64,000 nt of DNA. Origin: Candidatus Komeilibacteria bacterium RIFOXYD1_FULL_37_29 (lineage in GTDB: Bacteria > Patescibacteriota > Patescibacteriia > UBA1558 > GWA2-36-10). Every line of letters begins with the position of its first letter. Position 1 is the first letter of the stretch. Below are positions 899 through 38,063 of this stretch, piece by piece. The DNA is taken from positions 84,657 through 148,656 of the forward strand of contig MHKS01000004.1 of the NCBI GenBank assembly GCA_001818495.1, in the 5' to 3' direction. The position numbers were made by a program, and so were the translations under genes. Below the pieces are notes generated by a model that was not told where the DNA came from, searched no databases, and saw only the letters and a program-made list of their open reading frames with translations.

Positions 899-3800
899 AT
901 GGAATTTAAAAAACATAAATTAATCAGCCGCTTCCCTTATTTGGCGACCATTTTTAGCTTGCTGATGTTTTTGCCAAATAGGGTTTTGGCAGTGGACCCA
1001 TTTACTAGATTGATTGGCGACGCGATTTGGAGCTTTTTTGTCTATCCGATGATTTGGGCCTTACAACTAGAATTGGCCATATTGAAGTTAGTAGCCAGAT
1101 ACAATAATTTTACCAATGAAGGTGGAGTAATCTTGGGTTGGATAGCGCTACGCGATCTTTCCAATATGTTTTTTATTCTGATACTTTTGGTGATTGCTTT
1201 TGCCACAATACTTAGAATTTCCAGTTATGGTTATCAGCAACTATTAAAGCGCACACTGATTATTGCTATTTTGATAAACTTTTCCAAAACCATCGTTGGT
1301 TTTGTGATTGATATCGCTCAGATTGTTATGTTGACTTTTATCTCAGCGGTAGACGATATATTGACCGGCGGAGTAGTAGTGGCTATCGGACTTCAAAAAT
1401 TTACCACCATTAATATTTTGGGTGATGGCATGGATTATGCTGATTATATTACCTCTTTGGTCATGGGGGCTCTACTAGTGGCTATACTTTTAGTAGTTAT
1501 TGGTATTATGGTGATGATGCTGACGATGAGAATTATAGCTTTATGGGTAGCGATTATTTTAGCACCGCTAGCTTTTGTGGCTAGTATTTTTCCAGCCACC
1601 AACAGCTTTTATAACACCTGGATAAAGCAACTGGGTAGCAATTTGGTCTCTGGGCCGATGCTGGCGTTTTTTCTGTGGCTGACCTTTTCTATTGTGGGAA
1701 ATGGAGAGGCATATAAAAGTTTTATGGAATCGGGCACCACTCCGGGGGATGGAGCTACAGAATTTTTGGGTACTAGTAATTTGGTAAATTATATAGTAGC
1801 CATTTCTTTGCTACTGACGGGTATTAAAATAGCGGCTAGTTCGGGAGCCGCTGGAGCCAGTTTTGCGGCCAAAGGCATGGGACTGATGCAAAAAACAGCC
1901 GGTAAACTTTATAGGCGTTATCCAAAAGCCCTGGGTATGAGAGTAGCTTCTGGTGTAGCTGGTCGAGTTGTTGATAAGGATGGTAATTTGAGAACAGGTT
2001 TCAAGACGCTAGGTAAAATACCTTTTTATGGCGGTCGCTTACAAAGAGGAGCTATGAACGTTAAAGGTAGAAATGCTGCTAGAATAATGGAGGAAAAAGC
2101 TGAAGACGAAAAATATCTTTTGCCACAGCACAAGGTGGTCTATGAAAAAACCTATGGAGCGGGAGCTAGTAGTAAATTTAAAGTAGGAAAAATACCTTTG
2201 GGTAAAATATATTCCAAGGTGGGTTCTTGGGGAGGTGACAAGGAAAGAGAAGCTATGATGTATCAGAATATGTTGGCTCGCGGCGAAATTAATGTTGGCA
2301 ATGCCGATAAAGCCACCAACGCCTTGCGTGATCTTGGTGATGAAGCTGGTATGCAAAAAATACAATCCCAATATTGGACCTTTAAAGATAAGGCAGAAGC
2401 CAAACGTTTGATAGAAAAGGGAGGATTGGGGACTGTATTGGATAGTGTAAAAACAGATAATCTTAGAGAAAAGGTTATAGATCCAAAAACAGGCAAGGTC
2501 GAAATGGAAAAATATATAGACCCAGCAACCGGTGAAACCAAGGAAAGAGAAAAAATTCGAGTAAAAGAGTCTACCCAATATGCTTTGGAAGCCATTGCTA
2601 ATCCGGAGCATGGACAGGCAGATCACAATACTATAGCCAAGTATATTTTGAAGTGGAGCAAAGAAGACAGGGGTACTTTGATGACTATTGTTAAAGATAG
2701 TTTTGATTTTGCTAAGCATTTTACAGGAGAAACGTTGGATTCAAAAGATGGTTATCAGCCAGACAAAAGAAACTTTATTCCATCTAGGTTATCAAACGAA
2801 GCTGTGATGTGGGCTCAGGTGACAGGAAAGATTTACCCTCAAATGTTGGGGGATGAGTTTGGTGATGATGGTAAATTGAAGCTATTTGGTGCAGATAGGT
2901 ATTATCATGCAGCTGGTTACCGAGATTTAAAAGAGTCGTATGTAGTACCTGGCCAAATAGCTAGTAGATTGCAACAACAACACGGAGAAACCAATGTTCA
3001 ATTTAAGAAAAGAAAGCAACATGCTGAAGCCCTTGATGTTGTAAAATTAGACGATGCCAGCACCTTACATCAAGCATTGCGAGGACGTTATGTGACTAAA
3101 GATGCGAGTGGTAAAGATGTCATTGATAAAGAGAAATTCGTTGAATATAGGCAAAAGATGTATAGGCAGATATTGAATTTAGATGCTTATACAGAAAATT
3201 TACAAGGTAAGAAGCGATCTGATTTTCACAATAATGATCATATCTATAATAATAATTTAACCATTGCTGAACAAGCAGAGCAATTGGCTAGAAAATATGT
3301 AGCTCCAGAAACAGCTCGCGGAGATTTAATAATTCAAAAAGACAATCCGGCCAAAGAAGGAGAACCAGATTATGAAGTTAGGAAATTACATAGAGGTAAT
3401 TTTGCTACTCAAACAGCTTATGCTGATTATCTTGATAATTTGCAAAGAGCTACCAGAGAAATAGAGAAAATATTGGCTATTAAAATGGAAGATGTTGATA
3501 AAGATTTTGATGATAAATTTGGTGAAGGTGCTTTTGAAAGAGAAAAAAGAAGGATGGTAGCAGAAGTGGTTGATGATAAGCGAACAGCTCATGATTTAGT
3601 ATCCAAGAGTATCTGGGGAGAAGTTCAAGATGGAGCGCCTGGGGAAAGACTGGCAGAAGTAAATACTGGTAATATTCATGAAGCAGTTATGCTTGATCAT
3701 GCTCTTGATTCATCTGAAAATCAGCAACAAGCTCAAGCATTTAAAGTAACTACCCCTGAGCAGACGCAATATATAGTAGATAAACTAGCCGAGCTTGGTA

Positions 3801-4270
3801 AACAGCCCCAGAAGATATTATTAGAAAATATCCCAAAGGTTCTAGCGGCTGAGGCTATGCAGAAATTTAATGATGTCAAGGCTCTACAAGCTGGTGTCTT
3901 GCCTCAGGACTTGTTGTTATTGGGAGCTGATTTGAGAAAAATATCGGTAGTTTTAAAAACTATGGCCAATCAACAAAACATGACGGTTTCTCAGATATTA
4001 AAAAAAGATAAGGCTTTAGAGGGGTATATAACAAGTTTGCAAAAGATACATGAGAATAACACAAATATTAATCAAGGCATGCTGGTGATAGATAATGCAC
4101 CGCCAGGAGTCAACAGCCCAGAATTGGAAAAATTGATGGAAGAAGCAGATATTGAAGGTGTACAAAGTGCTGGTTATTTGGTTAATGGAGTGGTGCAAAA
4201 AAAAGTGAAAGCTGAAGTGGATAAAAAAACTAAGGGATCTTCAGAAGATAGCGACAAAGAAAAAACCTAG
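899..4270 (+). CDS. VirB6/TrbL-like polytopic membrane protein with ~800 aa charged C-terminal extension
   Basis: N-terminal signal-like segment followed by about 7 hydrophobic helices in the first 330 aa, a TrbL/VirB6-like topology. The rest is a long Lys/Glu/Asp-rich hydrophilic tail. Assignment is by topology and by the VirB4 cluster lying 5 kb downstream; there is no sequence-level proof. Confidence 0.4.
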   Translation: MEFKKHKLISRFPYLATIFSLLMFLPNRVLAVDPFTRLIGDAIWSFFVYPMIWALQLELAILKLVARYNNFTNEGGVILGWIALRDLSNMFFILILLVIAFATILRISSYGYQQLLKRTLIIAILINFSKTIVGFVIDIAQIVMLTFISAVDDILTGGVVVAIGLQKFTTINILGDGMDYADYITSLVMGALLVAILLVVIGIMVMMLTMRIIALWVAIILAPLAFVASIFPATNSFYNTWIKQLGSNLVSGPMLAFFLWLTFSIVGNGEAYKSFMESGTTPGDGATEFLGTSNLVNYIVAISLLLTGIKIAASSGAAGASFAAKGMGLMQKTAGKLYRRYPKALGMRVASGVAGRVVDKDGNLRTGFKTLGKIPFYGGRLQRGAMNVKGRNAARIMEEKAEDEKYLLPQHKVVYEKTYGAGASSKFKVGKIPLGKIYSKVGSWGGDKEREAMMYQNMLARGEINVGNADKATNALRDLGDEAGMQKIQSQYWTFKDKAEAKRLIEKGGLGTVLDSVKTDNLREKVIDPKTGKVEMEKYIDPATGETKEREKIRVKESTQYALEAIANPEHGQADHNTIAKYILKWSKEDRGTLMTIVKDSFDFAKHFTGETLDSKDGYQPDKRNFIPSRLSNEAVMWAQVTGKIYPQMLGDEFGDDGKLKLFGADRYYHAAGYRDLKESYVVPGQIASRLQQQHGETNVQFKKRKQHAEALDVVKLDDASTLHQALRGRYVTKDASGKDVIDKEKFVEYRQKMYRQILNLDAYTENLQGKKRSDFHNNDHIYNNNLTIAEQAEQLARKYVAPETARGDLIIQKDNPAKEGEPDYEVRKLHRGNFATQTAYADYLDNLQRATREIEKILAIKMEDVDKDFDDKFGEGAFEREKRRMVAEVVDDKRTAHDLVSKSIWGEVQDGAPGERLAEVNTGNIHEAVMLDHALDSSENQQQAQAFKVTTPEQTQYIVDKLAELGKQPQKILLENIPKVLAAEAMQKFNDVKALQAGVLPQDLLLLGADLRKISVVLKTMANQQNMTVSQILKKDKALEGYITSLQKIHENNTNINQGMLVIDNAPPGVNSPELEKLMEEADIEGVQSAGYLVNGVVQKKVKAEVDKKTKGSSEDSDKEKT

Positions 4271-9019: not shown

Positions 9020-10363
9020 ATGGACTTTGCAAATAATACAACCGTTAATATTTTAGATAACGACAACTGGTCTTCTTCGCTTTTGGTCAAAGATGAAAAG
9101 GGTAATTTGACTTACCTCAAAAATAAAGCACCCCAGATCAAGCTTGGCCCAGAGTCGCAAATTGATGTAGTTTCTGAAGGTGATTTAGCACCTCGGGATG
9201 CTTCTTTTATTTCACTGCCCAATATTTACGGCTCTTCTTCGGATAAAGCAGAACTTGTTTTTCATCCGCACGACAAGCAGGAGTTGGATTTTTTTGCTAA
9301 AAATGTACCACTAGATGATAGTAAAAAATATAGTATAGAAAAAATTGTGGCTCGCATTATTGCCAAGCAAGAGTTGGATTTTGATGAGAAAAATGCCAAA
9401 CTTTTTACTAATATTTTATACAATTTTTTCCGAAGTAGAAAAAGTGCGGCTATCGTGAGAGAGCTTTTGAGTAAAAATGTTTCATTGAAAAATAAACCAC
9501 TAGCGGGAGAAAATTTAGATACCATATTGTCTGTTATTAAAGTTATAAAAAATAAAATTGACTTGGCTGGGGGATTGGTAGTCAATCAAGCAGAATTAGC
9601 CCTTAAACAGGAGACAAGTGTTAAGTTGGAAATACCGACCATCAAAATAGAGGAAACAAACAATAACCAAAAATCAGCTCAAGACGAGATCAAAGATATG
9701 TTAAAAGGCGCTTTGCCAAAAGTAGAAGCCAAAATTATTGAAACAACAGTTGAGGACAAAAGTAAGATAAAGGATAAACAGGGAGTTCAACCAGCGGCTG
9801 GATTTTCTATTCCGGCGGGGTCAAAGGAACTTGATAAAAAACCGATTGTTAGTAACCCAAAGACCGATATAGTGGCTAGTAATAAAATTTTGGAGATTAA
9901 ACTAGATAGTCCGGAAGAAAAAATAGATATATCTTTACCCAAAGTATCTAGACCGGGTATTTCGCAAACTCCTAGGCGGTCTATGAGCGATGTTTTTACG
10001 CCAGCCAAAGAAGACGCTTCTTTTCTATCCAGGGCAACTTTAATGGGGCCAGTACAAGAATTGCAATCTTTTGATTTAATTGCTTTTCGTCGTTTGGGAA
10101 ATACTGCTGAAGAAAGAGTCCAAAAAGTGTTTGATCGGATAAATTTATTAGAGCAGGATTCTTATACTAAAAAAGCTCAAGGCATTGCTGCTTGGAGAGA
10201 GAGTGGTGTTTATAAATTATATCTTAAGCTAGGAGCAGATAGCATGATTGCTGGTCGGCAAGTGGCTGATTATATAGCAGACAAAGCAAATAAAAACGAA
10301 GATACTTTGAGTGTAGCCGAATTTTCAGCTATTTCTGATTTAAATAAGCAATTGAGGTTTTAA
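9020..10363 (+). CDS. Hypothetical protein, first gene of the T4SS-like cluster
   Basis: 447 aa hydrophilic, no TM helices and no recognisable motif. Its stop is 3 nt before the PrgI-like gene. Confidence 0.45.
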   Translation: MDFANNTTVNILDNDNWSSSLLVKDEKGNLTYLKNKAPQIKLGPESQIDVVSEGDLAPRDASFISLPNIYGSSSDKAELVFHPHDKQELDFFAKNVPLDDSKKYSIEKIVARIIAKQELDFDEKNAKLFTNILYNFFRSRKSAAIVRELLSKNVSLKNKPLAGENLDTILSVIKVIKNKIDLAGGLVVNQAELALKQETSVKLEIPTIKIEETNNNQKSAQDEIKDMLKGALPKVEAKIIETTVEDKSKIKDKQGVQPAAGFSIPAGSKELDKKPIVSNPKTDIVASNKILEIKLDSPEEKIDISLPKVSRPGISQTPRRSMSDVFTPAKEDASFLSRATLMGPVQELQSFDLIAFRRLGNTAEERVQKVFDRINLLEQDSYTKKAQGIAAWRESGVYKLYLKLGADSMIAGRQVADYIADKANKNEDTLSVAEFSAISDLNKQLRF

Positions 10364-10851: not shown

Positions 10852-11532
10852 ATGAAAAATAAAAAATTAGCTGGTAATAAAGTGGCCACCTCTACTCAGA
10901 AATATTTGGATATTGCCGAAATCCGTGATAATTTGGTGGTTTTAAATGATGGTGCCGTCCGCGGTGTTTTATTGGTTTCTTCTATAAATTTTGATTTAAA
11001 ATCAGAGGACGAGCAGCGAGCTATTATCAGCAATTATGTTGGTTTCTTAAATACTTTAGACTATCCATTGCAAGTGATTATACAATCTCGACCTTTAAAT
11101 ATTGATGAGTATTTAGACAGATTGAAGAGAAAAGAAAGAGAGCAGACCAATGAATTATTGCGTATGCAAACGGCTGATTATCGCGGTTTTGTCCAAGAGC
11201 TTCTAACTCTAGAAAGTATTATGAGTAAAAAGTTTTATATAGTAGTTCCCTATAGTCAGGTCAGTGATAAACGTCGGGGATTTATTAGTCGTTTTGCTTC
11301 AGTTTTTTCTTCGGCCAAAGTTGTCACTTTAAGTCGTAAGCGTTTCGAAGAGTTTAGTGAACAGCTAGATAAACGTTGTAATTTTATTGGTAGTGGTTTA
11401 TCTGGGCTAGGACTAAGAAGCCAGCGTTTGAGTACACAGGCTTTAATTGAACTTTATTATAATAGTTATAATCCTGATATATTTCAAAAACAACCAATGG
11501 AGGATATAAATAAATTAACCGTTGAAACATAA
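10852..11532 (+). CDS. virB4: VirB4-like protein, N-terminal domain encoded as a separate ORF
   Basis: YLDIAEIRDNLVVLNDGAVRGVLLVSSINFDLKSEDEQ...QVIIQS resembles the N-terminal region of monoderm VirB4/TcpF/PrgJ proteins. The stop TAA overlaps the next ATG (TAATG). Confidence 0.5.
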   Translation: MKNKKLAGNKVATSTQKYLDIAEIRDNLVVLNDGAVRGVLLVSSINFDLKSEDEQRAIISNYVGFLNTLDYPLQVIIQSRPLNIDEYLDRLKRKEREQTNELLRMQTADYRGFVQELLTLESIMSKKFYIVVPYSQVSDKRRGFISRFASVFSSAKVVTLSRKRFEEFSEQLDKRCNFIGSGLSGLGLRSQRLSTQALIELYYNSYNPDIFQKQPMEDINKLTVET

Positions 11533-13454
11533 TGTTTGGTTTTAATAAAATAAAACAAGCCGAGCAAAAGACCAAAGGAGATAAGGATTTGGAAAAATTT
11601 GCTAGTGCTGAGCGGCGGGTTTTGTCTCAAACAGAGGTGATCGCTAGAGAAAAACAGCTGATCGAAGCAGAAAAAGTTTTTAGAGAAGGTATTGTTTCGG
11701 TTAGAGATATTGTAGCTCCTTCCGCTCTGAAAATTGATCCGAGGTTTTTACAGCTCAATGATTTTTATGTCCGGACTTTGTTTGTGATGACTTATCCGCG
11801 TTATGTTACTATTGGTTGGTTTGCACCGATTATCAATGAAAGTTTGACTCTGGATATCTCCATGTTTTTTTATCCTTTGGATATAAAATTGGTTTTAAAA
11901 CAGTTGAAAAATAAAGTTGGTACTATGCAGGCGCAGATTATTGCTGATCACGAAAAAGGTGCACCACGTGATCCGATTTCCGAAACAGCCCTTCAGGATA
12001 TCGAGGCGCTTCGGGACGGCTTGAGTCAGGGTACCGAAAAGTTTTTTCAATTTGCTCTCTATATTACTATTTATGCCAAAACTTTGGATGAACTAGATCT
12101 AGCCAGTGATCGTATTGAAAATTTATTGGGTATACAGCTTATTTATTCTCGTCGAGCTTTATTTCAGGCCGAACAGGGTTTTAATTCTACTCTGCCTTTG
12201 GGTAATGATGAGCTGAGTATTTCTACCAACATGAACAGCTCGCCAATCGCTTCGTCATTTCCTTTTGTCTCTTCCGAGCTGACTTCCGATGACGGAATTT
12301 TGTATGGTATCAATCGGCACAACAATAGTTTGATATTATTTGATCGTTTTTCTTTACAAAATGCCAACATGGTAGTGTTTGCTACTTCTGGTGCTGGTAA
12401 AAGCTATGCTATTAAATTGGAAGTGCTGAGGTCTATGATGTTGGGTACGGATGTTATTATTATTGACCCAGAAAATGAATACCAGCATCTGTCTGAGGCG
12501 GTTGGTGGTGCTTATATCAATGTATCTTTAAATTCTGAGAGCAAACTTAATCCTTTTGATCTGCCCAAGGGTTTTGGTGGCGATAGTAAGCCGGAAGATA
12601 TTATCAGAAGCGCTATTATTACTCTCAAAGGTTTGATCCGACTGATGATTGGTGATATTACCAACGGGGAAGATTCGCTGTTGGATCGGGCTATTTTAGA
12701 AACTTATGCTAAAAAAGATATTACGCCAGCTAGTGATTTGAATAATATTGAACCGCCGATTATGTCTGATTTGGAAGAGGTTTTGATCAGTATGGAAGGT
12801 GGGGAAGATATGGCCTTAAGAATTAAAAAATATACCGAAGGTACTTTTTCGGGGTTATTTAATAGTCCAACCAATATTAAAGTGGATAATCAATTGGTGG
12901 TATTTTGTATTCGGGACCTGGAAGATGAGCTTCGTCCGATTGCCATGTACATGATTATGACACATATCTGGAATATTATCAGAAGCGAATTGAAGCGCCG
13001 AATACTGGTAGTCGATGAGGCCTGGATTATGATGCGCCATGAAGATAGTGCCAAATTTATGTATGCTTTGGTGAAGCGTTGTCGTAAATATTATCTAGGA
13101 GTTACTACTATTACCCAAGATGTTAATGACTTTTTAACTTCTACTTATGGCAATGCTATTGTGACCAACTGCGCTTTACAACTTCTCTTAAAGCAGACTC
13201 CAGCCGCAGTCAATCTAGTTCAGAAGACATTTATGTTGACGGAAGGAGAAAAGTATCTACTGCTAGAAGCTGGATTAGGAGAGGGTATATTTTTTGCCGG
13301 AGCCAAACATGCGGCTATCAAGGTGCAAGCTTCTTATGCCGAGCATCAGATTATTACCTCAGACCCTCGTCAGTTGATAGAAATAGAAGAGGCCAAAAAA
13401 GAATTTGAAGAACAAATGATGGCCGAAGCAGAAAAAAATCCTAATCAAGTTTAG
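11532..13454 (+). CDS. virB4: VirB4/TraC/CagE-family T4SS ATPase (C-terminal two-thirds)
   Basis: Walker A VVFATSGAGKSY and Walker B ILVVDEAWIMM (the DEAW box typical of VirB4). The central domain shows the FYVRTLFVMTYPRYV pattern. Confidence 0.8.
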   Translation: MFGFNKIKQAEQKTKGDKDLEKFASAERRVLSQTEVIAREKQLIEAEKVFREGIVSVRDIVAPSALKIDPRFLQLNDFYVRTLFVMTYPRYVTIGWFAPIINESLTLDISMFFYPLDIKLVLKQLKNKVGTMQAQIIADHEKGAPRDPISETALQDIEALRDGLSQGTEKFFQFALYITIYAKTLDELDLASDRIENLLGIQLIYSRRALFQAEQGFNSTLPLGNDELSISTNMNSSPIASSFPFVSSELTSDDGILYGINRHNNSLILFDRFSLQNANMVVFATSGAGKSYAIKLEVLRSMMLGTDVIIIDPENEYQHLSEAVGGAYINVSLNSESKLNPFDLPKGFGGDSKPEDIIRSAIITLKGLIRLMIGDITNGEDSLLDRAILETYAKKDITPASDLNNIEPPIMSDLEEVLISMEGGEDMALRIKKYTEGTFSGLFNSPTNIKVDNQLVVFCIRDLEDELRPIAMYMIMTHIWNIIRSELKRRILVVDEAWIMMRHEDSAKFMYALVKRCRKYYLGVTTITQDVNDFLTSTYGNAIVTNCALQLLLKQTPAAVNLVQKTFMLTEGEKYLLLEAGLGEGIFFAGAKHAAIKVQASYAEHQIITSDPRQLIEIEEAKKEFEEQMMAEAEKNPNQV

Positions 13455-13492: not shown

Positions 13493-14047
13493 ATGGACGC
13501 TAAAAGAAAAAAAATACTTCTTATTCTAGCTGTACTCGTAGTATTGATCATACTTTTTTTAATCTGGATACTAAAAACTTCTGATCAAGGGCCGATGGGT
13601 AATGAAAACACCAATACTCCGCCGCCGGTTTTTAAAGCACCGAGTGTCAATTTGGAGTATAAAGATTCCGTAGAGGTCAAACAGACTTCTACCGAGTTTT
13701 CCGTGATTAATTTAGCCAAGACTTATGCGGCTAGATTTGGCTCTTGGTCCACCGATAATCAGGGAGCCAATCTCAACGAACTTTTGCCTCTTAGCACTGA
13801 AAAGATGAGGCAATACATTGCTAGTATTGATTTGGATTTTTCACCACAAGAGTTTCGAGGCAATACCACCAAAAGTATTAGCGCCAAAATAATCAGTTTA
13901 GACGAAAACAGTGCGGAGGTATTGGTCAATACTCAGAAAATAGAAACTAAGGCCAATTTGGAAGAGTCGGTCTACTATCAAGAAGCGACTGTCAAGATGA
14001 TTAAATCGGGTGATGTTTGGTTGGTTGATGAATTTATTTGGCAATAA
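13493..14047 (+). CDS. N-terminally membrane-anchored protein, possible VirB8-like component
   Basis: A single N-terminal TM helix then a soluble domain of about 150 aa. The size and topology are VirB8-like. The assignment is speculative. Confidence 0.3.
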   Translation: MDAKRKKILLILAVLVVLIILFLIWILKTSDQGPMGNENTNTPPPVFKAPSVNLEYKDSVEVKQTSTEFSVINLAKTYAARFGSWSTDNQGANLNELLPLSTEKMRQYIASIDLDFSPQEFRGNTTKSISAKIISLDENSAEVLVNTQKIETKANLEESVYYQEATVKMIKSGDVWLVDEFIWQ

Positions 14048-14050
14048 TTT

Positions 14051-14536
14051 TTGTTTATGGCTCTTGATTTAGCATTAAATCCGGAAGATTTAGGAGACGA
14101 CTTCGAAGACGAGGGCGAAGATTTTAATGATGAACTTTCTGAGGCTGGACAAAAAGAGGCTCAGCGTAATTTAGAAAGGATAAAAAAGCAAGTTAAAGAC
14201 AAAATCAAGAAACAGGTTCAGAAGGTAGCTAAGAAAATAGCTAGCAAAGTAACTGTTCGGGTAGTTTCTCTGGCTTGTGGAGCTACGGGTGTTGGACTTA
14301 TTGTTACTTATATTATTTGGACCGGGCAAGCCATCATTGCCAATTGGTTAGGCAAAGACAAAATTATACCAAAATTGGATTGGTGGGAGCTGGTTTTATG
14401 GGGCATTTTAACACTATTATTATTATTTCTCTTAGTAATTTTATTAGCTTTTTTAATAGTAGGTGCGGCTATTAGTAATCCAGTACTGGGGGTAACAATA
14501 CTTGGAGCTGTAGTTTGGAATTGGATCACCAGTTAG
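14051..14536 (+). CDS. Membrane protein with acidic N-terminus and two or three TM helices
   Basis: Asp/Glu-rich start, Lys-rich helix, then hydrophobic helices. No motif. Confidence 0.4.
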   Translation: MFMALDLALNPEDLGDDFEDEGEDFNDELSEAGQKEAQRNLERIKKQVKDKIKKQVQKVAKKIASKVTVRVVSLACGATGVGLIVTYIIWTGQAIIANWLGKDKIIPKLDWWELVLWGILTLLLLFLLVILLAFLIVGAAISNPVLGVTILGAVVWNWITS

Positions 14537-14553
14537 TATAAATAATATACATT

Positions 14554-15774
14554 ATGGATAAGAAAAAGATTTTTTTGGTCATCGGGTTTATTGTTCTAGT
14601 TTTGGGACTGGGCTTGGCTTTGTATTGGGTGTTTTTTAAACCAACTATTCCAATTACTCCAACAGATAATTTTAACGCTGGGAATTTGCCGGGGATTGGT
14701 AATGGCAATATACCGATTGTCAATGAAAATATCAATGCTCCTGACCAAGGATTGCCCTGGCAACAATATATTAAAGACAAAGTTTCCGATGTAGCCAGTG
14801 GCGGACTGACCAAGGTGTCAGAGGTTTCTGAAAATGAAGTCAGAGGGCTAACTAGTAGTCCCGGTGGTTTGCAATATTATGATGATAATGAACAAAAGTT
14901 TTATCGCATTACCGATAGTGGTACAGTAGAAGAATTGAGTAGCCAATTGTTTTATCAAGTAGAGGATGTGACCTGGGCTGGTAGCGGAGATAAGGCCATT
15001 TTGGAATATCCGGACGGATCAAATATTTTGTATAATTTTAAAAACGGCCAACAAGTGACCTTACCCAAAGAATTGGAAGATTTTTCTTTTGATGCTTCTG
15101 ATAGCCAAATTGCCGCCAAATGGATGGGCTCTAGTGAAGAGGATAACTGGGTGGTAGCATCCAATGATGATGGCTCGGGTATGTATCTTATCCAACCTTT
15201 GGGCGATCAAGCACATAATACTTTTGTCAGTTTTTCTCCAGATAATCAGGTAGCCGTCATGCATAGAAAATATGTGGACGCTCAAAGGCAAGAGGTTTAT
15301 CCTATTGGCTTACACGGCGAGACTTTTAAGGCTTTTACAGTGGCTGGCGCTGGTTTTGAATATGATTGGTCACCAGAGGGCAATAGTCTGGTTTATAGCG
15401 TTTATAATGAAACTAGTAATTACAATCCCAATCTTTGGGTGACCAATGGCAGTAGCAGTGAGTTGGGTGATATCAAAGTATCCTTAAATATTTCTACCTG
15501 GCCAGATAAATGCGCTTTTGTCGGTGAAGATATTATGTATTGCGCTGTACCTCAGGGATTGCCACGCGGTGCCGGACTTTATCCGGAAATAGCCGATCGT
15601 TATCCTGATAATTTCTATTATATCAACTTAAATTCCGGCTCTAAAAATTTGATTGCCAGTCCGGTTGGGGAGAGTGGTAGCTATACAGCCCATAATCTTT
15701 TTGTATCAAACGACCAATCAACCCTATATTTTACCGATCAGAACGGAAATTTACAAAGTATTAAATTAAAATAA
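14554..15774 (+). CDS. Membrane-anchored TolB-like (PD40 beta-propeller) protein
   Basis: N-terminal TM helix. PD40-like repeats are present (YPDGSNILYNF, FSPDNQVAVMH, WSPEGNSLVYSV). Confidence 0.5.
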   Translation: MDKKKIFLVIGFIVLVLGLGLALYWVFFKPTIPITPTDNFNAGNLPGIGNGNIPIVNENINAPDQGLPWQQYIKDKVSDVASGGLTKVSEVSENEVRGLTSSPGGLQYYDDNEQKFYRITDSGTVEELSSQLFYQVEDVTWAGSGDKAILEYPDGSNILYNFKNGQQVTLPKELEDFSFDASDSQIAAKWMGSSEEDNWVVASNDDGSGMYLIQPLGDQAHNTFVSFSPDNQVAVMHRKYVDAQRQEVYPIGLHGETFKAFTVAGAGFEYDWSPEGNSLVYSVYNETSNYNPNLWVTNGSSSELGDIKVSLNISTWPDKCAFVGEDIMYCAVPQGLPRGAGLYPEIADRYPDNFYYINLNSGSKNLIASPVGESGSYTAHNLFVSNDQSTLYFTDQNGNLQSIKLK

Positions 15775-15781
15775 TAATATT

Positions 15782-16549
15782 ATGAAAAATAAACGTTCAA
15801 TTATCTGGGGATCTTTACTACTATTATTTTTAATTTTTCCAGTCTTAGTTAACGCGATTGATGTAACCTATACACCAAATGTACCGATACCGATTAGGAT
15901 TGGTTCTTATGATTTTGGTGGAACAAATATAGTTGGTCCAGATTTTTTGGCTAGCTATATTGTGGCTATTTATACTTATGGAGCAGGTTTTGCCGGCATT
16001 GTAGCCATGTTTATGCTGGTGATTGCCGGTTGGCGTTGGCTTTTTGCCGCTGGTAATGCTAGTAAAATTGCCGCTGCCAAGGACACGGTCAATGGAGTCT
16101 TGGTTGGTTTGGCCTTACTTTTTGGCGGGCAATTGTTGCTTAGGCAAATTAGTGAGAATTTTAGCTCAATTCAAAGTTTGAAAGTCCAATTGCCAGAAGC
16201 AGCTCTCAATGCTATTTCTGCTAATAAGGCTAATGAGGATTTTTGTGCTAGTAGTGGCGAAGGATCTACTACAACAACTCCCAAAAGAGTTGAAGATTGT
16301 GAGGAATATAAAGATCCAACGCAATGTCTTACTGATACTTGTAATTTAATTGCCATTGGTGATTTTGATGACCGTTGTGTACCATTATTTAATAGGTCCA
16401 ATAATAGTTTTACCGGTTGTTCCGATTGTCCCAATACTTGTAGTTGCGATATATATATTAATGAGTTCTATAGAAATGCTGATCCTTGTGATTGTGATGA
16501 GGATAGCAAGTGGGTAGATGATAAATGTGAAGTTGTAGAGAATAACTAA
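15782..16549 (+). CDS. VirB2/TrbC-like T4SS pilin with cysteine-rich C-terminal domain
   Basis: A signal peptide (…VLVNA) is followed by two hydrophobic helices separated by a short charged loop (GNASKIAAAKD), the VirB2 topology. The last ~110 aa contain about 20 Cys. Confidence 0.45.
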   Translation: MKNKRSIIWGSLLLLFLIFPVLVNAIDVTYTPNVPIPIRIGSYDFGGTNIVGPDFLASYIVAIYTYGAGFAGIVAMFMLVIAGWRWLFAAGNASKIAAAKDTVNGVLVGLALLFGGQLLLRQISENFSSIQSLKVQLPEAALNAISANKANEDFCASSGEGSTTTTPKRVEDCEEYKDPTQCLTDTCNLIAIGDFDDRCVPLFNRSNNSFTGCSDCPNTCSCDIYINEFYRNADPCDCDEDSKWVDDKCEVVENN

Positions 16550-19275: not shown

Positions 19276-19437
19276 AGAATTTTATTAACTAGTGATTTTA
19301 TTATAACATATTCATTGGATTTCAGCCATTGCTCTAGGTATTGTCAAATAGGGCAAAATATATTATTATATAGCAGTCTTTTACGCTATAGAGCTTCAAT
19401 GGCTTAGTGTATTGTTTTATTAGGGTAAAAGTATAAT

Positions 19438-19476
19438 TTAGGAGAGTTGGCAGAGTGGTTGAATGCGGCGGTCTTG
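19438..19476 (+). repeat. Partial 5' copy (about 39 nt) of the downstream tRNA-Ser(TGA) gene including 3 nt of upstream flank
   Basis: Exact direct repeat of 19575..19613, covering the acceptor 5' strand, D-arm and 5' half of the anticodon arm. No matching 3' half follows, so it is not a functional tRNA. Confidence 0.7.
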
Positions 19477-19577
19477 TTCCCTGTTTGTCCAAGAGCGTAG
19501 CGATTGGCAACAAACAGCAATCCCGCCAAAGGCGGGAAAAACCTCCAAGGTTATTTACTAAGCAGAAATTTATTTTA

Positions 19578-19665
19578 GGAGAGTTGGCAGAGTGGTTGAA
19601 TGCGGCGGTCTTGAAAACCGTTGAGCCGAAAGGTTCCGAGGGTTCGAATCCTTCACTCTCCGCCA
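19578..19665 (+). tRNA. tRNA-Ser (anticodon TGA), long variable arm
   Basis: Cloverleaf folded by hand. Acceptor GGAGAGT/ACTCTCC, anticodon loop CTTGAAA, variable arm TGAGCCGAAAGGTTCC, T-loop TTCGAAT, CCA encoded. Confidence 0.85.
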
Positions 19666-19741
19666 GTCCTCGTAGCTCAATGGATAGAGCGTTTGGTTGC
19701 GGTCCAAAAGGTTGCAGGTTCGATTCCTGCCGGGGACGCCA
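19666..19741 (+). tRNA. tRNA-Arg (anticodon reads GCG)
   Basis: Begins immediately after tRNA-Ser. Acceptor GTCCTCG/CGGGGAC with one G-U pair, anticodon stem TTTGG/CCAAA, loop TTGCGGT, T-loop TTCGATT, CCA encoded. Confidence 0.65.
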
Positions 19742-19755
19742 TTTATTTAATTTTT

Positions 19756-19846
19756 GGAGAGGTGCCTGAGTGGTTGAAAGGGGCACCCTGCTAAGGTGTT
19801 ACTCCGTTTTTCGGGGTCGAGGGTTCGAATCCCTCCCTCTCCGCCA
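19756..19846 (+). tRNA. tRNA-Ser (anticodon GCT), long variable arm
   Basis: Acceptor GGAGAGG/CCTCTCC, anticodon loop CTGCTAA, long variable arm, T-loop TTCGAAT, CCA encoded. Confidence 0.85.
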
Positions 19847-25322: not shown

Positions 25323-25880
25323 TTAAAATTTTACCTGTACATTGGCCTTTTCTTTTTCATCTCCAATAGCAAAGAAATCCCAAGCTTTGAAGTTTAGCAT
25401 ACCGGCAATCAGGTTGTTGGGGAAAACTTCAATTTTGGTATTAAAGTCGCGGACCTGTCCGTTATAAAATCTACGAGCGGCTTGAATTTTATTTTCCGTA
25501 TCAGAAATTTCATCTTGTAGTTGTAAAAAGTTTTGAGAAGCTTTTAGGTCCGGATAGTTTTCGGCTACGGCAAATAAACTTTTTAAAGTTTCAGACAACA
25601 TATTTTCGGCCTGGCCTTTTTCTGCTATACCCTGAGCTTGCATAGCACTGGCGCGGGCTTGAGTTACCTTGGTCAGTACGCCTTCTTCGTGTTTCATATA
25701 ACCTTTGACCGTTTCCATCAAATTGGGTATCAAATCATAGCGGCGTTTAAGCTGGACATCGATATCTGACCAGGCCTCTTTAACCCGATTTTTGAGCCTA
25801 ATCAGGCTGTTGTAGACGCCTATTAACCAGATAACTATCAGGGCTACGGCTACTAGGATGACAATAAGAGCTTTATTCAT
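25323..25880 (-). CDS. lemA: LemA family membrane protein
   Basis: N-terminal TM then the LemA core (YNSLIRLKNRVKEAWSDIDVQLKRRYDLIPNL). Confidence 0.85.
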   Translation of the reverse strand: MNKALIVILVAVALIVIWLIGVYNSLIRLKNRVKEAWSDIDVQLKRRYDLIPNLMETVKGYMKHEEGVLTKVTQARASAMQAQGIAEKGQAENMLSETLKSLFAVAENYPDLKASQNFLQLQDEISDTENKIQAARRFYNGQVRDFNTKIEVFPNNLIAGMLNFKAWDFFAIGDEKEKANVQVKF

Positions 25881-26016
25881 AGTTTTAATTTAATTATTTA
25901 ATCAACCCTTTAATTTTACTAGATTGCCATTTTTTTAGCAAATCAATGGGAGCTATTATCATAGTTGTTAAAATGTGTTATAATAAATTTAGTTTAAAAA
26001 TATATAAAATAAAATT

Positions 26017-28470
26017 ATGTTTAAAAGAATTAGTAATTGGCAACTATCTTTCATAATAGCCATTGTATCAATCTGTAGTCTAGTGTTGATACAGCAATAT
26101 GTCATCGCTCAAAGTGGTTGGGTGGATCCAGATACTTTACCAGGTGTTACTCCTAGTAATGTTTTTGTGGTCAATCCTTTGGCCTCTGATTTGCAGTTAA
26201 ATAATCATAATATTTTAGGTAGTAATATGGTTATTGATGGTTCGGCCAATCTAAATGCGGTGACCCTAACTGGCGGTCGAAAGATCTGTTTGTCTGGTAC
26301 TTGTAGAGATACTTGGCCGGTAGTAACGGGCGGTATTACTGGTGGGGGAACAGTAGAGAAGATAGCAAAATTTACTGGTGCTAGCGCTATCGGAGATTCT
26401 ACCATCGAACACAGAGGTAATAGTATTTATGCATTTAATTCTGGTTTTAGTACTTCGGGTTTAATCTTGGGTGGAGGATCAGTAGATCCTCTACAAATAT
26501 ATGGTATGAATAATTTTAGTACTTCTAATCTTGTGTATTTGTCTATCTCTGGAGCCGCTGTGCCTTCAAGTGGAAATGCTATTAATATATTGAATGATGG
26601 CCATGGTAGTGGTTTAATTATTAATAATTCTAGAGCCACCAATATTAAAGAGGGTATTAATATAACTAATGGTGGTTTGGGTAATGGTTTAGTTGTCACC
26701 CAAAATAATCCGACTCCTGGTGCTGCCACTGGTCGACCTTTTCGTGTTAATGATGATAATGCTTCTGATAATACTCCTTTTGTTGTAGATTGGGAGGGTA
26801 AAGTTGGTATTGGAACGGTTAGTCCTAATAAGAATTTACACATTCAAACCGCTTCTGGCAATGCGGAAATAGATATTCAAAGTGGGGGAGTGTCTGGTAA
26901 TCATTGGGGTATTTATCATGATGCCGCTACTGATGACCTTTTCTTTTGGAAAGACGCAGCCAATCGGGTAGTTTTTACTGATAGCGGTAATATTAATTTA
27001 CAGGGATCAGTTTGTGATATTAATGGTGCTAATTGTTTTTCCGGTTCAACCAATTATTGGACTCAAGATGCTAGTTTAAACTTGTCTAGGACTAATAGTA
27101 ATGTTCACTTATTAGCTAGTGGACAAACTATGCCAGCGGCTCTAGCTTTATCTGGAACTAGAATGGTTTGGCATCCTACTAAAGCAGCTCTTAGAATTGG
27201 AGGAATTGGTGCCTCTGGGGCTACAAAATGGAGTGAGACCAACATTGGAAATTATTCACTTGTTTTTGGTCTAGATAGTAGAGCTAGTGGTCTTTACTCG
27301 GCAGTACTTAGTGGTAATGCCAATAATTCTGATGCTGAAGCTAGTGTTGTGGCTGGAGGTAGACAAAATCAGGTAGCCGCTTTTGCTTTGGAGGGTGCGG
27401 TAGTTGGTGGAGGAGCAAATCAGGTTAATGGTCAGGGTGGGTTTATTGGTGGTGGAAATCAAAACATAACCTCTGGTAGTTATTCAGTGCTCAGTGGAGG
27501 TATTAGTAATAGATTAATGGGTACAGGTAGTGTTATTGGTGGTGGTGGATGGAACATCGCAACAACTAGTTATTCTGTTATTGGTGGTGGCCAACAAAAT
27601 GGTGTCAATGGGCAACATGGAGTTGTTGGTGGCGGTTATTTAAACATAGTATCGTCAGCTCAAAGTACCATTAGTGGTGGTTGGAACAATAGTATTAGTG
27701 GTCCGATTGGAACCATCGGTGGCGGAAAGGATAATTTAATATTACTAGAAGGTCAATTAAGCACTATCGGGGGAGGTACAAGTAATAATATCAGCGCTGA
27801 TTATGTAGCTATAGCCGGCGGACAAAGTAATACTGTTAGTGGTGATTTTGGAGCCATTGGAGGTGGTAGTTTAAATAGTGTCAGTGGTATTTTTTCAGTT
27901 ATTCCTGGTGGTTCTGCTAATTTGGCAGCCGGCGATTATTCTTTAGCTGCTGGCAGACATATGGAATTATCAGCTACAGCAGACAATAGTTTTGTTTGGG
28001 GAACTTCTGATACGCCGGTTTCTATCACTAGGGACAATTCCTTTATAGTATTTCCAACTAATCCAACAGGTAGTCTTCCTAGATTAGGTATTGGTACTTC
28101 TGCTCCCAACAGCACTGTCCATATCAAATCAAATAGTGGTAATGCCGAAATAGACCTACAAAGTGGCTCTAGCCCTTATTGGGGTATTTATCAAGATGAT
28201 ACGACCGACGAACTTCGCTTCTGGAATAACGGAGTCAATAAAGTGATTTTCAAGAGTAATAGTTTGGGAGTAGTTAGTGATTCGGCTGATGGGGTGGATA
28301 ATTATATTCAATTGGATAAGGTAAATGCAGTACCCCCAGTAACTGATTGTGATGAGGTAGCAGAGGAGGGTAGAATGATTTGGAAAGCGGCGGGTTTTAA
28401 TAGATTGATGATTTGTGGATACGACAGTGTCAGTGGATTATATGGTTGGAGAACTCTTTTATCTTCCTAA
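26017..28470 (+). CDS. Large secreted surface protein with YadA-head-like (Hep_Hag-type) Gly/Asn repeats and an internally duplicated ~55-aa module
   Basis: Signal peptide. Long run of repeats of the form GG.N.[VI]SG..S.I.GG. The module NLHIQTASGNAEIDIQSGG...WGIYHD..TD.L.FW occurs twice (about aa 260 and 690). A terminator follows. Confidence 0.5.
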   Translation: MFKRISNWQLSFIIAIVSICSLVLIQQYVIAQSGWVDPDTLPGVTPSNVFVVNPLASDLQLNNHNILGSNMVIDGSANLNAVTLTGGRKICLSGTCRDTWPVVTGGITGGGTVEKIAKFTGASAIGDSTIEHRGNSIYAFNSGFSTSGLILGGGSVDPLQIYGMNNFSTSNLVYLSISGAAVPSSGNAINILNDGHGSGLIINNSRATNIKEGINITNGGLGNGLVVTQNNPTPGAATGRPFRVNDDNASDNTPFVVDWEGKVGIGTVSPNKNLHIQTASGNAEIDIQSGGVSGNHWGIYHDAATDDLFFWKDAANRVVFTDSGNINLQGSVCDINGANCFSGSTNYWTQDASLNLSRTNSNVHLLASGQTMPAALALSGTRMVWHPTKAALRIGGIGASGATKWSETNIGNYSLVFGLDSRASGLYSAVLSGNANNSDAEASVVAGGRQNQVAAFALEGAVVGGGANQVNGQGGFIGGGNQNITSGSYSVLSGGISNRLMGTGSVIGGGGWNIATTSYSVIGGGQQNGVNGQHGVVGGGYLNIVSSAQSTISGGWNNSISGPIGTIGGGKDNLILLEGQLSTIGGGTSNNISADYVAIAGGQSNTVSGDFGAIGGGSLNSVSGIFSVIPGGSANLAAGDYSLAAGRHMELSATADNSFVWGTSDTPVSITRDNSFIVFPTNPTGSLPRLGIGTSAPNSTVHIKSNSGNAEIDLQSGSSPYWGIYQDDTTDELRFWNNGVNKVIFKSNSLGVVSDSADGVDNYIQLDKVNAVPPVTDCDEVAEEGRMIWKAAGFNRLMICGYDSVSGLYGWRTLLSS

Positions 28471-28483
28471 ATGATTTAAAATA

Positions 28484-28528
28484 AACCGCTACCCAAAGCT
28501 TTAGGCAAAGGGTGGCGGTTTTCTTGTT
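28484..28528 (+). terminator. Intrinsic terminator
   Basis: AACCGCTACCC/GGGTGGCGGTT stem, T-rich tail. Confidence 0.5.
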
Positions 28529-28603
28529 GGTGCATCAGCTTTTGTGGTATAATAAACATAGTAATTAAATATTTATTTATTTTTTAAGCTAGATTTATTT
28601 TAA

Positions 28604-30968: not shown

Positions 30969-32186
30969 ATGGGTTTATTTTCCAGCGTAACTAGTTATTT
31001 GGGAGTTGATATCGGAACATCCAGTATTAAGATGGTTGAGCTTGAAAATTATAAAAATCAGGCCAAATTGAGGACTTATGGTTATGCTGACATCGCCGTC
31101 AATGTTTTAAGTAGCTCGATTGATAAAAACAATCAACTAATTGCCGATTATATATCGGAAATTGCTCAAAAATCCAATGTTCAAACTAGGCAGGTGGTGG
31201 CCGCTTTGCCTACTTTTTCGGTTTTTAATTTTATTATCAATTTGCCACCCATGCCCAAAAAGGATTTGGCTTCAGCCATCAAGTGGGAGGCCAAAAAATT
31301 TATTCCCGTACCACTCGAAGAAATGATTTTGGACTGGAAAATACTCAATAAAAAGACCATTAACAAAAACCACGAAAAATCTTCTTTCTTATCTGGTGAA
31401 AAAGATAAAAAGAAAGACAACCCCATGGATATGGCTGGCGATATGGGCTTGGAAAATGATAGTCTGGGCACAGATAGAGCGGCTTTGGCTAAAAGCACGG
31501 CTAAAAACGCCTTAAAGGAGGAAGATAAATTTTTCGCTACCACTTCTAGTGACAATAATTATCGGATACTTTTGACGGCTGCACCAAAAAATTTAGTAGC
31601 CCGTTATATTGATATTTTCAAAAGAGCTAAATTTAATTTATTAAGCTTGGAAACCGAGGCTTTTGCTTTATCCAGATCGCTGATTGGTAATGACAATTCT
31701 ACTGTTATGATTGTAGACATCGGAGCCACCACAGCTGATATTTGTATTATTGAACAAGGCGTCCCGATACTTAATCGTGGCATAGATAGTGGTGGTGAGT
31801 TTATTACCAAAACTATCATGAATAGTCTAAATGTCAATTCGGAAAGAGCCGAACAGTTTAAAAGAGATTTTGGTTTGGCCGGTGGCGGATTTAAAAATGT
31901 ACCAGATGTTATTCAAAAATCTTTAAATTCTATCATCAATGAAATCAAATATGTTTTTGAGATTTATCAGAGACAGCGTAATAGCCATATAGAAAAAATA
32001 GTTTTGACTGGCGGTAGTGCTTTTTTACCCAGTTTGCCCCAATATTTATCTGAACTTTTGAATATGGAAGTAATTATTGGTGATCCTTGGGACAGAATAA
32101 TCTATCCTTTGGATTTAAAGCCGATTTTACAAGAAATTGGGCCTAGAATGGCTACTTCTGTCGGTTTAGCTATGCGCGATATATAA
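30969..32186 (+). CDS. pilM: Type IV pilus assembly protein PilM (actin-like ATPase fold)
   Basis: N-terminus LGVDIGTSSIKMVEL, typical of PilM. An acidic insertion is present. 405 aa. Confidence 0.8.
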   Translation: MGLFSSVTSYLGVDIGTSSIKMVELENYKNQAKLRTYGYADIAVNVLSSSIDKNNQLIADYISEIAQKSNVQTRQVVAALPTFSVFNFIINLPPMPKKDLASAIKWEAKKFIPVPLEEMILDWKILNKKTINKNHEKSSFLSGEKDKKKDNPMDMAGDMGLENDSLGTDRAALAKSTAKNALKEEDKFFATTSSDNNYRILLTAAPKNLVARYIDIFKRAKFNLLSLETEAFALSRSLIGNDNSTVMIVDIGATTADICIIEQGVPILNRGIDSGGEFITKTIMNSLNVNSERAEQFKRDFGLAGGGFKNVPDVIQKSLNSIINEIKYVFEIYQRQRNSHIEKIVLTGGSAFLPSLPQYLSELLNMEVIIGDPWDRIIYPLDLKPILQEIGPRMATSVGLAMRDI

Positions 32187-32189
32187 GTT

Positions 32190-33674: not shown

Positions 33675-33680
33675 AAATTT

Positions 33681-34448: not shown

Positions 34449-34453
34449 TTTTT

Positions 34454-34822: not shown

Positions 34823-34843
34823 GATGATATAAGATTATTTTTT

Positions 34844-36580: not shown

Positions 36581-36616
36581 TCAAAATATTAATTATATAA
36601 TATACAATATAATCAT

Positions 36617-37003: not shown

Positions 37004-37004
37004 C

Positions 37005-38057: not shown

Positions 38058-38063
38058 TAATTT

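Follow-up and report, generated by a model that had tools for sequence, protein, structure and literature searches.

What does it mean when a VirB4 ATPase gene is closed by a stop codon and restarted at once in another frame: a decaying secretion system, an error of assembly, or a protein that is ordinarily made in two pieces? The question is raised by one locus in the window, the whole stretch of 64,000 nucleotides analyzed here, where ORFs of 226 and 640 codons meet at a TAATG junction. The original prediction, made from the sequence of the window, offered both a naturally split gene and a recent single frameshift. We find that this two-gene VirB4 is functional, ordinary for its phylum, and already described in the literature; it is neither a fresh frameshift nor an assembly error. 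Very probably, VirB4 is naturally encoded here by two genes, a TrsD-like ORF1 and an ATPase-core ORF2, that jointly rebuild the protein. The features of the locus are listed in Table 1.

Table 1. Features of the two-gene virB4 locus (positions in the window)
Feature	Positions	Strand	Basis or remark
PrgI-family (VirB3-like) small membrane protein, 160 aa	10367..10849	+	Pfam PF12666 PrgI
ORF1, TrsD-like/TraC-like, 226 aa, start ATG	10852..11532	+	NCBIfam, hhalign to TrsD, fold, homologues
ORF1/ORF2 junction TAATG	11530..11534	+	Reads gaaacaTAATGttt; TAA 11530-11532, ATG 11532-11534, one base common to both
ORF2, VirB4-family T4SS ATPase without the first N-terminal sub-domain, 640 aa, start ATG	11532..13454	+	NCBIfam, Pfam, PDB
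Walker A ATSGAGKS, ORF2 residues 284-291	12381..12404	+	Aligns with GSGKS of the fused homologue
Walker B ILVVDE, ORF2 residues 491-496	13002..13019	+	D and E nearly invariant in alignment A3
Four tightly packed genes 3' of ORF2 (184, 161, 406, and 255 aa)	13493..16549	+	ORFs

The gene order runs from prgI (VirB3-like membrane protein) through ORF1 (TrsD/TraC-like) to ORF2 (VirB4 core), with ORF2 in the -1 frame relative to ORF1. Coordinates and sequence agree with the prediction of two ORFs in different frames that meet at TAATG, and their sum of 866 aa is, as had been said, about that of a full-length VirB4 (TrwK, 823 aa; PrgJ, 796 aa; fused Patescibacteria forms, 860-910 aa). The junction itself had been described as a clean 4-nt coupling overlap. 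A 4-nt stop/start overlap would be ATGA; TAATG is an overlap of 1 nt. Translational coupling at this overlap is possible. An SD-like motif was not found upstream of ORF2, and most genes in the window likewise have none, which speaks neither for coupling nor against it. Gaps or overlaps of 10 nt or less occur at 16 of the 44 same-strand gene junctions in the window, and at 59472 the unrelated genes for a dCMP deaminase and a kinase meet in another stop/start overlap of 1 nt; the type of junction between ORF1 and ORF2 is therefore not special there.

[quoted passage not shown] The PrgI-family gene (PF12666, E 7.7e-12, 46 bits against a cutoff of 27) lies directly 5' of ORF1 with a gap of 2 nt, its translation shows a hydrophobic stretch, and it supplies the adjoining VirB3-like gene that marks VirB4 loci. 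It occupies the equivalent position in related loci, and the order PrgI/ORF1-like/VirB4 also occurs in loci L091-L093. The four genes 3' of ORF2 gave only weak Pfam matches (PD40, E 0.01; T4SS_pilin, E 0.0035, in the last gene) and probably belong to the same T4SS cluster; in the related locus L091, a PD40/beta-propeller gene stands 3' of virB4. Neither a relaxase nor a coupling protein was found near the locus, whose setting is chromosomal, among housekeeping genes.

ORF2 exceeds the curated cutoffs of both the NCBIfam equivalog NF045971 conju_CD1110 (E 5.5e-102, 342.3 bits versus 325) and Pfam P-loop_TraG (97 bits versus 25.8), and also matches AAA_10 and DUF87. BLASTP aligns its residues 53-591 with residues 221-773 of PrgJ, and ORF2 also aligns with residues 56-626 of TrsE. 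Walker A and Walker B are intact in a RecA-like C-terminal domain. The original prediction assigned the N-terminal domain to one ORF and the ATPase core to the other, which needs amendment: ORF2 residues 250-609 match the crystal structure of the VirB4 C-terminal domain (4AG5, E 1.3e-46) and PF03135, the family of VirB4 N-domains, has a weak match at residues 149-222, so some 250 aa of the classical N-terminal domain remain in ORF2. The complete N-terminal region is thus not found in one polypeptide, some 200 residues of it being encoded separately by ORF1, and ORF2 is collinear with the remainder of VirB4 after the ORF1 part.

ORF1 encodes, as a protein of its own, the first sub-domain of the N-terminal region of VirB4. 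Coverage of full-length VirB4 by the two proteins is complementary and non-overlapping: in NCBIfam VirB4_plasma, ORF1 matches model positions 91-256 of 894 (E 2.3e-11) and ORF2 positions 275-893; in the CD1110 VirB4 model, the corresponding positions are 20-120 and 167-729 of 752. No similarity was found between ORF1 and ORF2, and ORF2 contains no second copy of the ORF1 module. As in the TrsD family, ORF1 is a protein of about 225 aa encoded between VirB3-like and VirB4 genes, and it is homologous to both TrsD and the N-terminal part of VirB4 (by hhalign, VirB4_plasma, and Foldseek). Its match to the TrsD/TraD family NF041427 (E 2.2e-9, 37.4 bits) falls far under the curated cutoff of 200 bits; hhalign against pSK41 TrsD gave a probability of 88-89% (E 2-4e-6, 125-175 columns). 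A local Pfam scan of ORF1 returned only PF11130 TraC_F_IV (E 0.013) and not PF26593; the PF26593 TraC-like name of the family is taken from precomputed matches on homologues, which are present in all 120 of the best 120.

Searches of the PDB by phmmer with ORF1 alone and by hmmsearch with an 82-sequence profile yielded only chance matches (SDR oxidoreductase, E 0.04) or none, so a fold comparison was needed. With the AF2 model of ORF1 (pLDDT 73.8) as query, the top 14 Foldseek matches in the PDB are all TrwK/VirB4 chains, with probability 1.0. The resemblance to VirB4 N-domains on which the original prediction depended is accordingly present in both the NCBIfam models and the predicted fold. 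A 101-sequence profile of the ORF1 family gave insignificant matches to the single TrwK and PrgJ sequences (hhalign, hmmsearch); these are positionally plausible (ORF1 119-145 with TrwK 112-138; ORF1 23-72 with PrgJ 46-95) and are not counted as evidence.

Homologues of ORF1 are numerous. Among the best 120 of 2510 found, identity is 58-91%, length is 197-234 aa (221-234 aa in all but two), and the labels are Patescibacteria, Komeilibacteria, or Parcubacteria. An exhaustive HMMER search returned 2541 cluster representatives, and among the best 150 of these, 149 are 132-443 aa long and one is 898 aa. Stand-alone proteins of the ORF1 type, about 226 aa in length, occur in hundreds of Patescibacteria, and the homologues terminate at the same residue. 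We fetched 80 loci, each from a different GTDB species, of which 79 include downstream DNA. In all 79 of these Patescibacteria loci, ORF1 is closed by a stop and the VirB4 core follows as an ORF of its own, of about 620-660 aa, with junctions that vary in geometry: the two genes overlap by 1 nt (17 loci), 8 nt (16), 4 nt (3), or 20 nt (1), or are separated by 0-25 nt (28) or 26-461 nt (14). The 1-nt overlap is thus not kept among relatives, and tight coupling of ORF1 and ORF2 is not a conserved requirement. Relative to its closest loci, ORF1 has a dN/dS of 0.06-0.07, with dS near saturation, and is under strong purifying selection; ORF1 and ORF2 are both conserved under such selection. Judged from these comparisons, the split is ancient and conserved across a wide span of Patescibacteria. 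The natural split foreseen in the original prediction thus stands, and the recent single frameshift offered beside it does not.

Closely related systems are already known. One is the chromosomal T4SS of Patescibacteria (CPR) (Quinonero-Coronel et al. 2025, PMC12102498; Wang et al. 2023, PMC10633639), which shares phylum, components, order, and chromosomal setting with the locus; we see no difference of substance, and the locus is one more instance of its TrsD plus VirB4 system. According to that survey (PMC12102498), TrsD and the N-terminal part of VirB4 are remote homologues, and no other T4SS component is as abundant in Patescibacteria: 2,272 homologues of TrsD were counted, 1,664 of them adjoining virB4. 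We credit the statement of TrsD-VirB4 homology to PMC12102498 only; that paper cites Guglielmini et al. 2014 (PMC4027160) for it, a work whose main text does not use the word TrsD. In its main text, the survey treats TrsD as a separate component and takes up neither the geometry of the junction nor the fused forms described below.

Likewise, the staphylococcal conjugative plasmids pSK41/pGO1 (MPF-FATA, pGO1 subclass; NF041427) have the same trsC-trsD-trsE layout, with genes of 135, 227, and 672 aa in pSK41 versus 160, 226, and 640 aa here. The pSK41 trsC is named by position and size only, being annotated as a hypothetical protein; at the trsE position, the annotation of the 672-aa gene reads DUF87 domain-containing protein. 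TrsE and ORF2 share 24% identity (E 2e-44), and their breaks are equivalent in position (ORF2 residue 79 pairs with TrsE residue 56); the similarity of TrsD to ORF1 is very remote (37 bits versus the family cutoff of 200). In contrast to the chromosomal locus studied here, which has neither a relaxase nor a VirD4-like protein, the conjugative plasmid pSK41 encodes both, and in it a gap of 14 nt takes the place of the overlap at the junction.

Single-chain relatives complete the comparison. PrgJ of pCF10 (CD1110 family), a full-length monoderm VirB4, has PrgI upstream, as here, but carries in the same polypeptide the first ~200 residues that a separate gene encodes in our locus. TrwK/VirB4 of R388 (cryo-EM structures 7O41, 8RTB, and 8RTD) is the one PDB fold family matched by the ORF1 model, with a query-normalized TM of 0.47, and its residues 445-782 align with the Walker core of ORF2; it belongs to a diderm MPF-T system, however, is a single chain, and is only 13-18% identical to ORF1.

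Within the phylum, one Berkelbacteria-type clade encodes fused TraC-like plus VirB4 proteins (e.g., P0258; locus L087 of CP066695.1). They contain the same two modules in the same order, 3' of PrgI, but in one ORF, where a linker of about 100 residues connects the parts that are two genes in our locus. P0258 corresponds to ORF1 over residues 2-224 and, over residues 322-890, to residues 49-616 of ORF2, with identities between the fused clade and our locus of 36% for the ORF1 part and 52% for the ORF2 part. Modeled with AF2, the fused homologue follows TrwK collinearly along ~930 columns; in its C-terminal domain it matches 4AG5/4AG6 (E 3e-23). The linker is predicted at pLDDT <50 and is probably disordered; the domain arrangement is of low confidence (pTM 0.44), and for this reason we claim no docking geometry of the module on the core from this model. 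In a neighbor-joining tree of the ATPase core (50 bootstraps), the fused clade is nested beside split forms, which suggests that the fused form is probably a secondary re-fusion. Neither the fused clade nor its nesting among split forms is mentioned in the main text of the 2025 survey (PMC12102498). Two short Berkelbacteria VirB4s, of 582 and 578 aa, were considered as split forms akin to the fused clade and rejected; their start codons had been called within frames that are open for 911 and 874 codons.

Three other explanations of the arrangement deserve weighing. First, ORF1 may derive from the VirB4 N-terminus and now act as an independent accessory factor (an assembly chaperone, regulator, or adaptor) rather than as a stoichiometric piece of the protomer. 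TrsD has no assigned function and its homologues do not adjoin virB4 in Gracilibacteria (PMC12102498), many members of the ORF1 family bear C-terminal extensions that bring them to 300-443 aa, and spacers as long as those above indicate that tight co-translation is not needed. Against these points stand the strictly complementary coverage of VirB4 models, the existence of a natural fusion in the same order, the adjacency of ORF1 and ORF2 in every one of the 79 loci and in pSK41, and an ORF2 that is without any other copy of the module. We regard an accessory role as improbable.

Second, a recent frameshift, or a 1-nt assembly or sequencing indel, could have broken a single virB4, leaving a decaying system or an artefactual split. 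The ORFs do lie in adjacent frames, a single-base change near 11526-11531 would join them, and a fused form of ~900 aa is known in another Patescibacteria clade. A frameshifted pseudogene, however, is recognized by an uninterrupted ORF in close relatives and by relaxed constraint, while here the stop and restart recur throughout the 79 loci, from different species and assemblies, the homologues share their last residue, and ORF1 evolves at a dN/dS of ~0.06. The TAATG junction is identical in four independent assemblies (L001-L004; 84-85% protein identity) and in 13 further loci, and the fused clade is distant and joined through its extra linker, not by a simple joining of frames. An origin by recent damage or error is thus hardly credible.

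Third, a programmed -1 ribosomal frameshift at the end of ORF1, which would yield an 866-aa VirB4 beside a short product, is suggested by the abutting ORFs and the -1 frame of ORF2 and is extremely unlikely: a TGA at 11523-11525, three codons before the ORF2 ATG, closes the ORF2 frame and leaves only two codons for a shift, no slippery heptamer X XXY YYZ was found in the open codons before that ATG, and the frame relation of the two genes varies among relatives (the same frame or the other shifted frame in some), which, together with separations of up to 461 nt, makes a conserved frameshift signal impossible.

We therefore return to VirB4 encoded by two genes. Under this interpretation, the ORF1 and ORF2 polypeptides would assemble non-covalently into a complete VirB4 protomer, in which ORF2 would supply the hexameric ATPase motor. 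In R388, the VirB4 N-terminal domain contacts VirB3 and VirB8 and has a role in dimer formation (PMC12857230). By analogy, ORF1 may supply part of the N-terminal domain that joins two protomers per dimer, and the contacts of the TrwK N-domain with VirB3 and VirB8 may extend to this system. Tight operon packing, including the 1-nt overlap, may help to match the amounts of both proteins.

For annotation, we propose that the locus be recorded as prgI/virB3-like, trsD-like, and virB4, not as a pseudogene or an assembly error. Beyond correct annotation, the finding is of little importance in itself. The split had been expected to inform on the activity of the system. Since this T4SS is normally split at VirB4, the split is uninformative on its activity and is no sign of an inactive T4SS. 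In compact, Shine-Dalgarno-poor genomes, a stop/start overlap within a known protein is better tested by cross-species comparison than called a frameshift.

Finally, most lineages encode the two sides of the ORF1/ORF2 boundary separately, and one clade joins them by a flexible linker; this observation could help to direct structural studies of the N-terminal docking of VirB4. More speculatively, and in our view rather doubtfully, the point at which the first VirB4 sub-domain ends may act as a functional hinge, cut and re-joined in the course of evolution, with the TrsD-like module as a detachable subunit. The T4SS of Patescibacteria is reported to be essential for epibiotic life, with homologous genes, including TrsD (PMC12102498), essential in Ca. 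Southlakia epibionticum. If the hinge is real, the amount or binding of the TrsD-like module could control the docking of VirB4 dimers on VirB3/VirB8, and the assembly of this essential T4SS could be controlled in the same way, which would make the arrangement more than a trivial gene fission.

Comparison of sequences and models shows that ORF1, the TrsD-like gene, and ORF2, the VirB4-core ATPase gene, supply complementary parts of the VirB4 architecture and are conserved neighbours that are fused in one clade. As originally predicted, the two ORFs lie in different frames and meet at TAATG, and the coordinates and the junction (gaaacaTAATGttt) hold on re-reading the sequence. The overlap is not the 4 nt first described; the ORF1 stop TAA (11530-11532) and the ORF2 start ATG (11532-11534) have one base in common, and ORF2 is in frame -1 relative to ORF1. 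Such an overlap would permit termination-reinitiation coupling, which may occur here and is not conserved among related loci.

Positions of the VirB4-related genes, the type IV pilus genes of the window and the compared genes of plasmid pSK41
Feature	Sequence	Position	Strand	Length	Group or record annotation
ORF1	window	10852..11532	+	226 aa	
ORF2	window	11532..13454	+	640 aa	
PilM-like	window	start 30969			type IV pilus cluster
PilB/T2SSE ATPase	window	start 34844			type IV pilus cluster
second T2SSE-type ATPase	window	start 37005			type IV pilus cluster
PilC/T2SSF	window	start 38064			type IV pilus cluster
pilin with N-terminal methylation motif	window	start 39464			type IV pilus cluster
prepilin peptidase	window	start 40487			type IV pilus cluster
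trsC position	pSK41	25492..25899		135 aa	hypothetical protein
trsD	pSK41	25886..26569		227 aa	TrsD/TraD family conjugative transfer protein
trsE position	pSK41	26584..28602		672 aa	DUF87 domain-containing protein

Tight gene packing is usual in the window (16 of 44 same-strand junctions have gaps or overlaps no longer than 10 nt), and 1-nt stop/start overlaps belong to the ordinary operon packing of this genome. A second one, at 59472 (58930..60017), joins unrelated genes for a dCMP/cytidine deaminase and a small P-loop nucleotide kinase, followed by thymidylate synthase (60033..60929). No Shine-Dalgarno-like motif precedes ORF2, which is uninformative because most of the 43 genes compared across the window lack one within 20 nt 5' of the start; AGGAG- or GGAG-like sequences occur in no more than about a dozen of these start regions. 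Translation initiation in this genome seems largely Shine-Dalgarno-independent.

ORF2 scores 342 bits (E 5.5e-102) against conju_CD1110, the NCBIfam equivalog for monoderm VirB4-like ATPases (curated cutoff 325), the match spanning positions 167-729 of 752 in the model. In VirB4_plasma it covers positions 275-893 of 894, and it contains the Pfam domains P-loop_TraG, AAA_10 and DUF87. Residues 250-609 match 4AG5 (E 1.3e-46), the crystallised C-terminal domain of Thermoanaerobacter VirB4, and both Walker A (ATSGAGKS, residues 284-291) and Walker B (ILVVDE, residues 491-496) are intact. About 250 residues precede the ATPase domain, among them a stretch (149-222) that weakly matches PF03135. This places the gene break within the classical VirB4 N-terminal domain, following its first sub-domain, rather than at the border of N-domain and Walker core where it had been placed.

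The proposed resemblance of ORF1 to the VirB4 N-terminus is borne out by both profiles and predicted structure. ORF1 matches VirB4_plasma positions 91-256 (E 2.3e-11) and CD1110 positions 20-120, so that its coverage of the VirB4 models, N-terminal to that of ORF2, is complementary and collinear; no similarity of ORF1 to any part of ORF2 was detectable. Its match to the TrsD/TraD family (E 2.2e-9) falls well under that family's curated cutoff. An AlphaFold2 model built from 82 homologues (mean pLDDT 73.8) retrieved R388 T4SS TrwK/VirB4 chains as all 14 top PDB matches (probability 1.0, E values from 6e-4, query-normalised TM 0.47), and the following matches had E of at least 0.08 and probability of at most 0.4. 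Many TrsD-like family members found by exhaustive HMMER search (P0136, P0146, P0150, P0193 and others) are 300-443 aa long, with the conserved module N-terminal and an uncharacterised C-terminal extension of 100-200 residues.

The original prediction left open a naturally split gene or a recent single frameshift, and the comparative data support the former and refute the latter. A search of 5.8 billion proteins returned 2510 matches to ORF1; the best 120 (58-91% identity, 197-234 aa, all but two 221-234 aa) belong to MAGs of Patescibacteria, Parcubacteria or Komeilibacteria. When 1.84 billion cluster representatives were searched exhaustively with HMMER, 2541 matched; of the best 150, all but one, of 898 aa, measure 132-443 aa. 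We compared 80 loci from different GTDB species (51-85% identity to ORF1). In 79 of the 79 with downstream DNA, a stop after ORF1 is followed by a separate VirB4-core ORF (about 620-660 aa where complete), and the split is thus conserved among related genomes. The junctions are overlaps of 1 nt (17 loci), 8 nt (16), 4 nt (3) or 20 nt (1), or gaps of 0-25 nt (28) or 26-461 nt (14), and at some loci both genes share a frame. Against the closest relatives, dN/dS for ORF1 is 0.06-0.07, dS being close to saturation. Together, the stand-alone homologues, the split at all 79 loci, varied junctions and low dN/dS exclude a recent frameshift, and the split and junction data likewise exclude an assembly indel. 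A conserved programmed frameshift is excluded by the varied junctions and frames; moreover, a TGA at 11523-11525 closes the ORF2 frame three codons before its ATG, and the junction sequence offers no slippery site and just two open codons for a shift.

Fused relatives do occur. P0258, the 898-aa match, is ORF1-like over residues 2-224 (36% identity) and ORF2-like over residues 322-890 (52% identical to ORF2 residues 49-616); its gene immediately follows a PrgI gene on five contigs, which represent at least three samples. Searching with it yielded about 70 clusters of such fused proteins, 860-910 aa long and carrying the labels Berkelbacteria, Saccharimonadales or Patescibacteria. Fused genes of this Berkelbacteria-type clade of Patescibacteria occupy L081 4001-6697, L087 2014-4749 and L089 2113-4737 among the related loci. 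Two apparently short Berkelbacteria VirB4s (582 and 578 aa) in the NCBI genomes CP066695.1 and MEZX01000002.1 proved to be internal-start calls in frames open for 911 and 874 codons. In an AlphaFold2 model of P0258 both modules are folded, and the roughly 100 residues between them (215-315, pLDDT below 50) are consistent with a flexible linker. The modelled C-terminal domain matches 4AG5/4AG6 (E 3e-23), and the whole chain is collinear with TrwK over about 930 columns. A neighbour-joining tree built on the ATPase core recovers Patescibacteria as monophyletic (50/50 bootstraps) and the fused proteins as one clade beside proteins of 600-700 aa (48/50); the three sampled members of that neighbouring group are all split, each with an upstream TraC-like gene of 240-277 aa. 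On the simplest reading of this simple tree, the phylum's ancestral state would be the split one, with a single later re-fusion.

A similar arrangement exists on the staphylococcal plasmid pSK41, whose genes at the trsC, trsD and trsE positions match the window's 160-, 226- and 640-aa genes in order and approximate size. TrsD matches the ORF1 family (hhalign probability 88-89%, E 2-4e-6), and TrsE aligns to ORF2 across 577 columns at 24% identity (E 2e-44). This alignment pairs ORF2 residue 79 with TrsE residue 56, and the break is therefore at an equivalent place. In PrgJ of pCF10 (796 aa), unlike the window, the first ~200 residues belong to the same chain; ORF2 residues 53-591 align to PrgJ 221-773.

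The T4SS cluster is chromosomal, with ribosomal protein S6, SSB and EF-P upstream and RecG downstream, and neither a relaxase nor a coupling protein was seen in its vicinity. The 447-aa ORF directly upstream of prgI, the VirB3-like gene, may belong to the cluster. This ORF (9020..10363) and those at 899..4270 (1123 aa), 26017..28470 (817 aa) and 28604..30889 (761 aa) had no Pfam match at the thresholds used. Further along are ClpB, LigA, GatA and a type IV pilus cluster (30969..41266, some 17 kb downstream from the T4SS genes), directly followed by a 403-aa ORF (41298..42509) with Hint/intein-like matches to Hint, Hom_end_hint, Vint and PT-HINT, all below Pfam cutoffs. A 422-aa ORF (53548..54816) is an unusual fusion of an EamA-type transporter domain (residues 159-292) and a riboflavin kinase domain (307-421). 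The mechanical 150-aa ORF at 19334..19786 (-), over three tRNA genes (19578..19846; Ser-tga, Arg-gcg, Ser-gct), is almost certainly not a gene.

In R388, VirB4 N-terminal domains join the two protomers of each dimer and contact VirB3 and VirB8 (review PMC12857230). We propose that ORF1 and ORF2 would form a complete VirB4 protomer by non-covalent association, in which ORF1 would supply part of the N-domain interface, beside the PrgI/VirB3-like protein, and ORF2 the ATPase ring. TrsD, described as a remote homologue of the VirB4 N-terminus, is reported to be the commonest T4SS component of Patescibacteria (2,272 homologues, 1,664 of them near virB4); the clusters are chromosomal and mostly without relaxase, the Patescibacteria VirB4 clade is placed next to MPF-FATA, and Ca. 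Southlakia epibionticum is noted as having an essential TrsD homologue (Quinonero-Coronel et al. 2025, PMC12102498). The T4SS is reported to be essential for epibiotic growth (Wang et al. 2023, PMC10633639). By these accounts, the locus is an instance of a published arrangement, already known and ordinary for the phylum; the main text of PMC12102498 makes no mention of the variety of junctions or of a fused Berkelbacteria-type clade nested among split forms. The split had been suggested as a clue to whether the system is active, but a two-gene VirB4 carries no information on inactivation of the T4SS.
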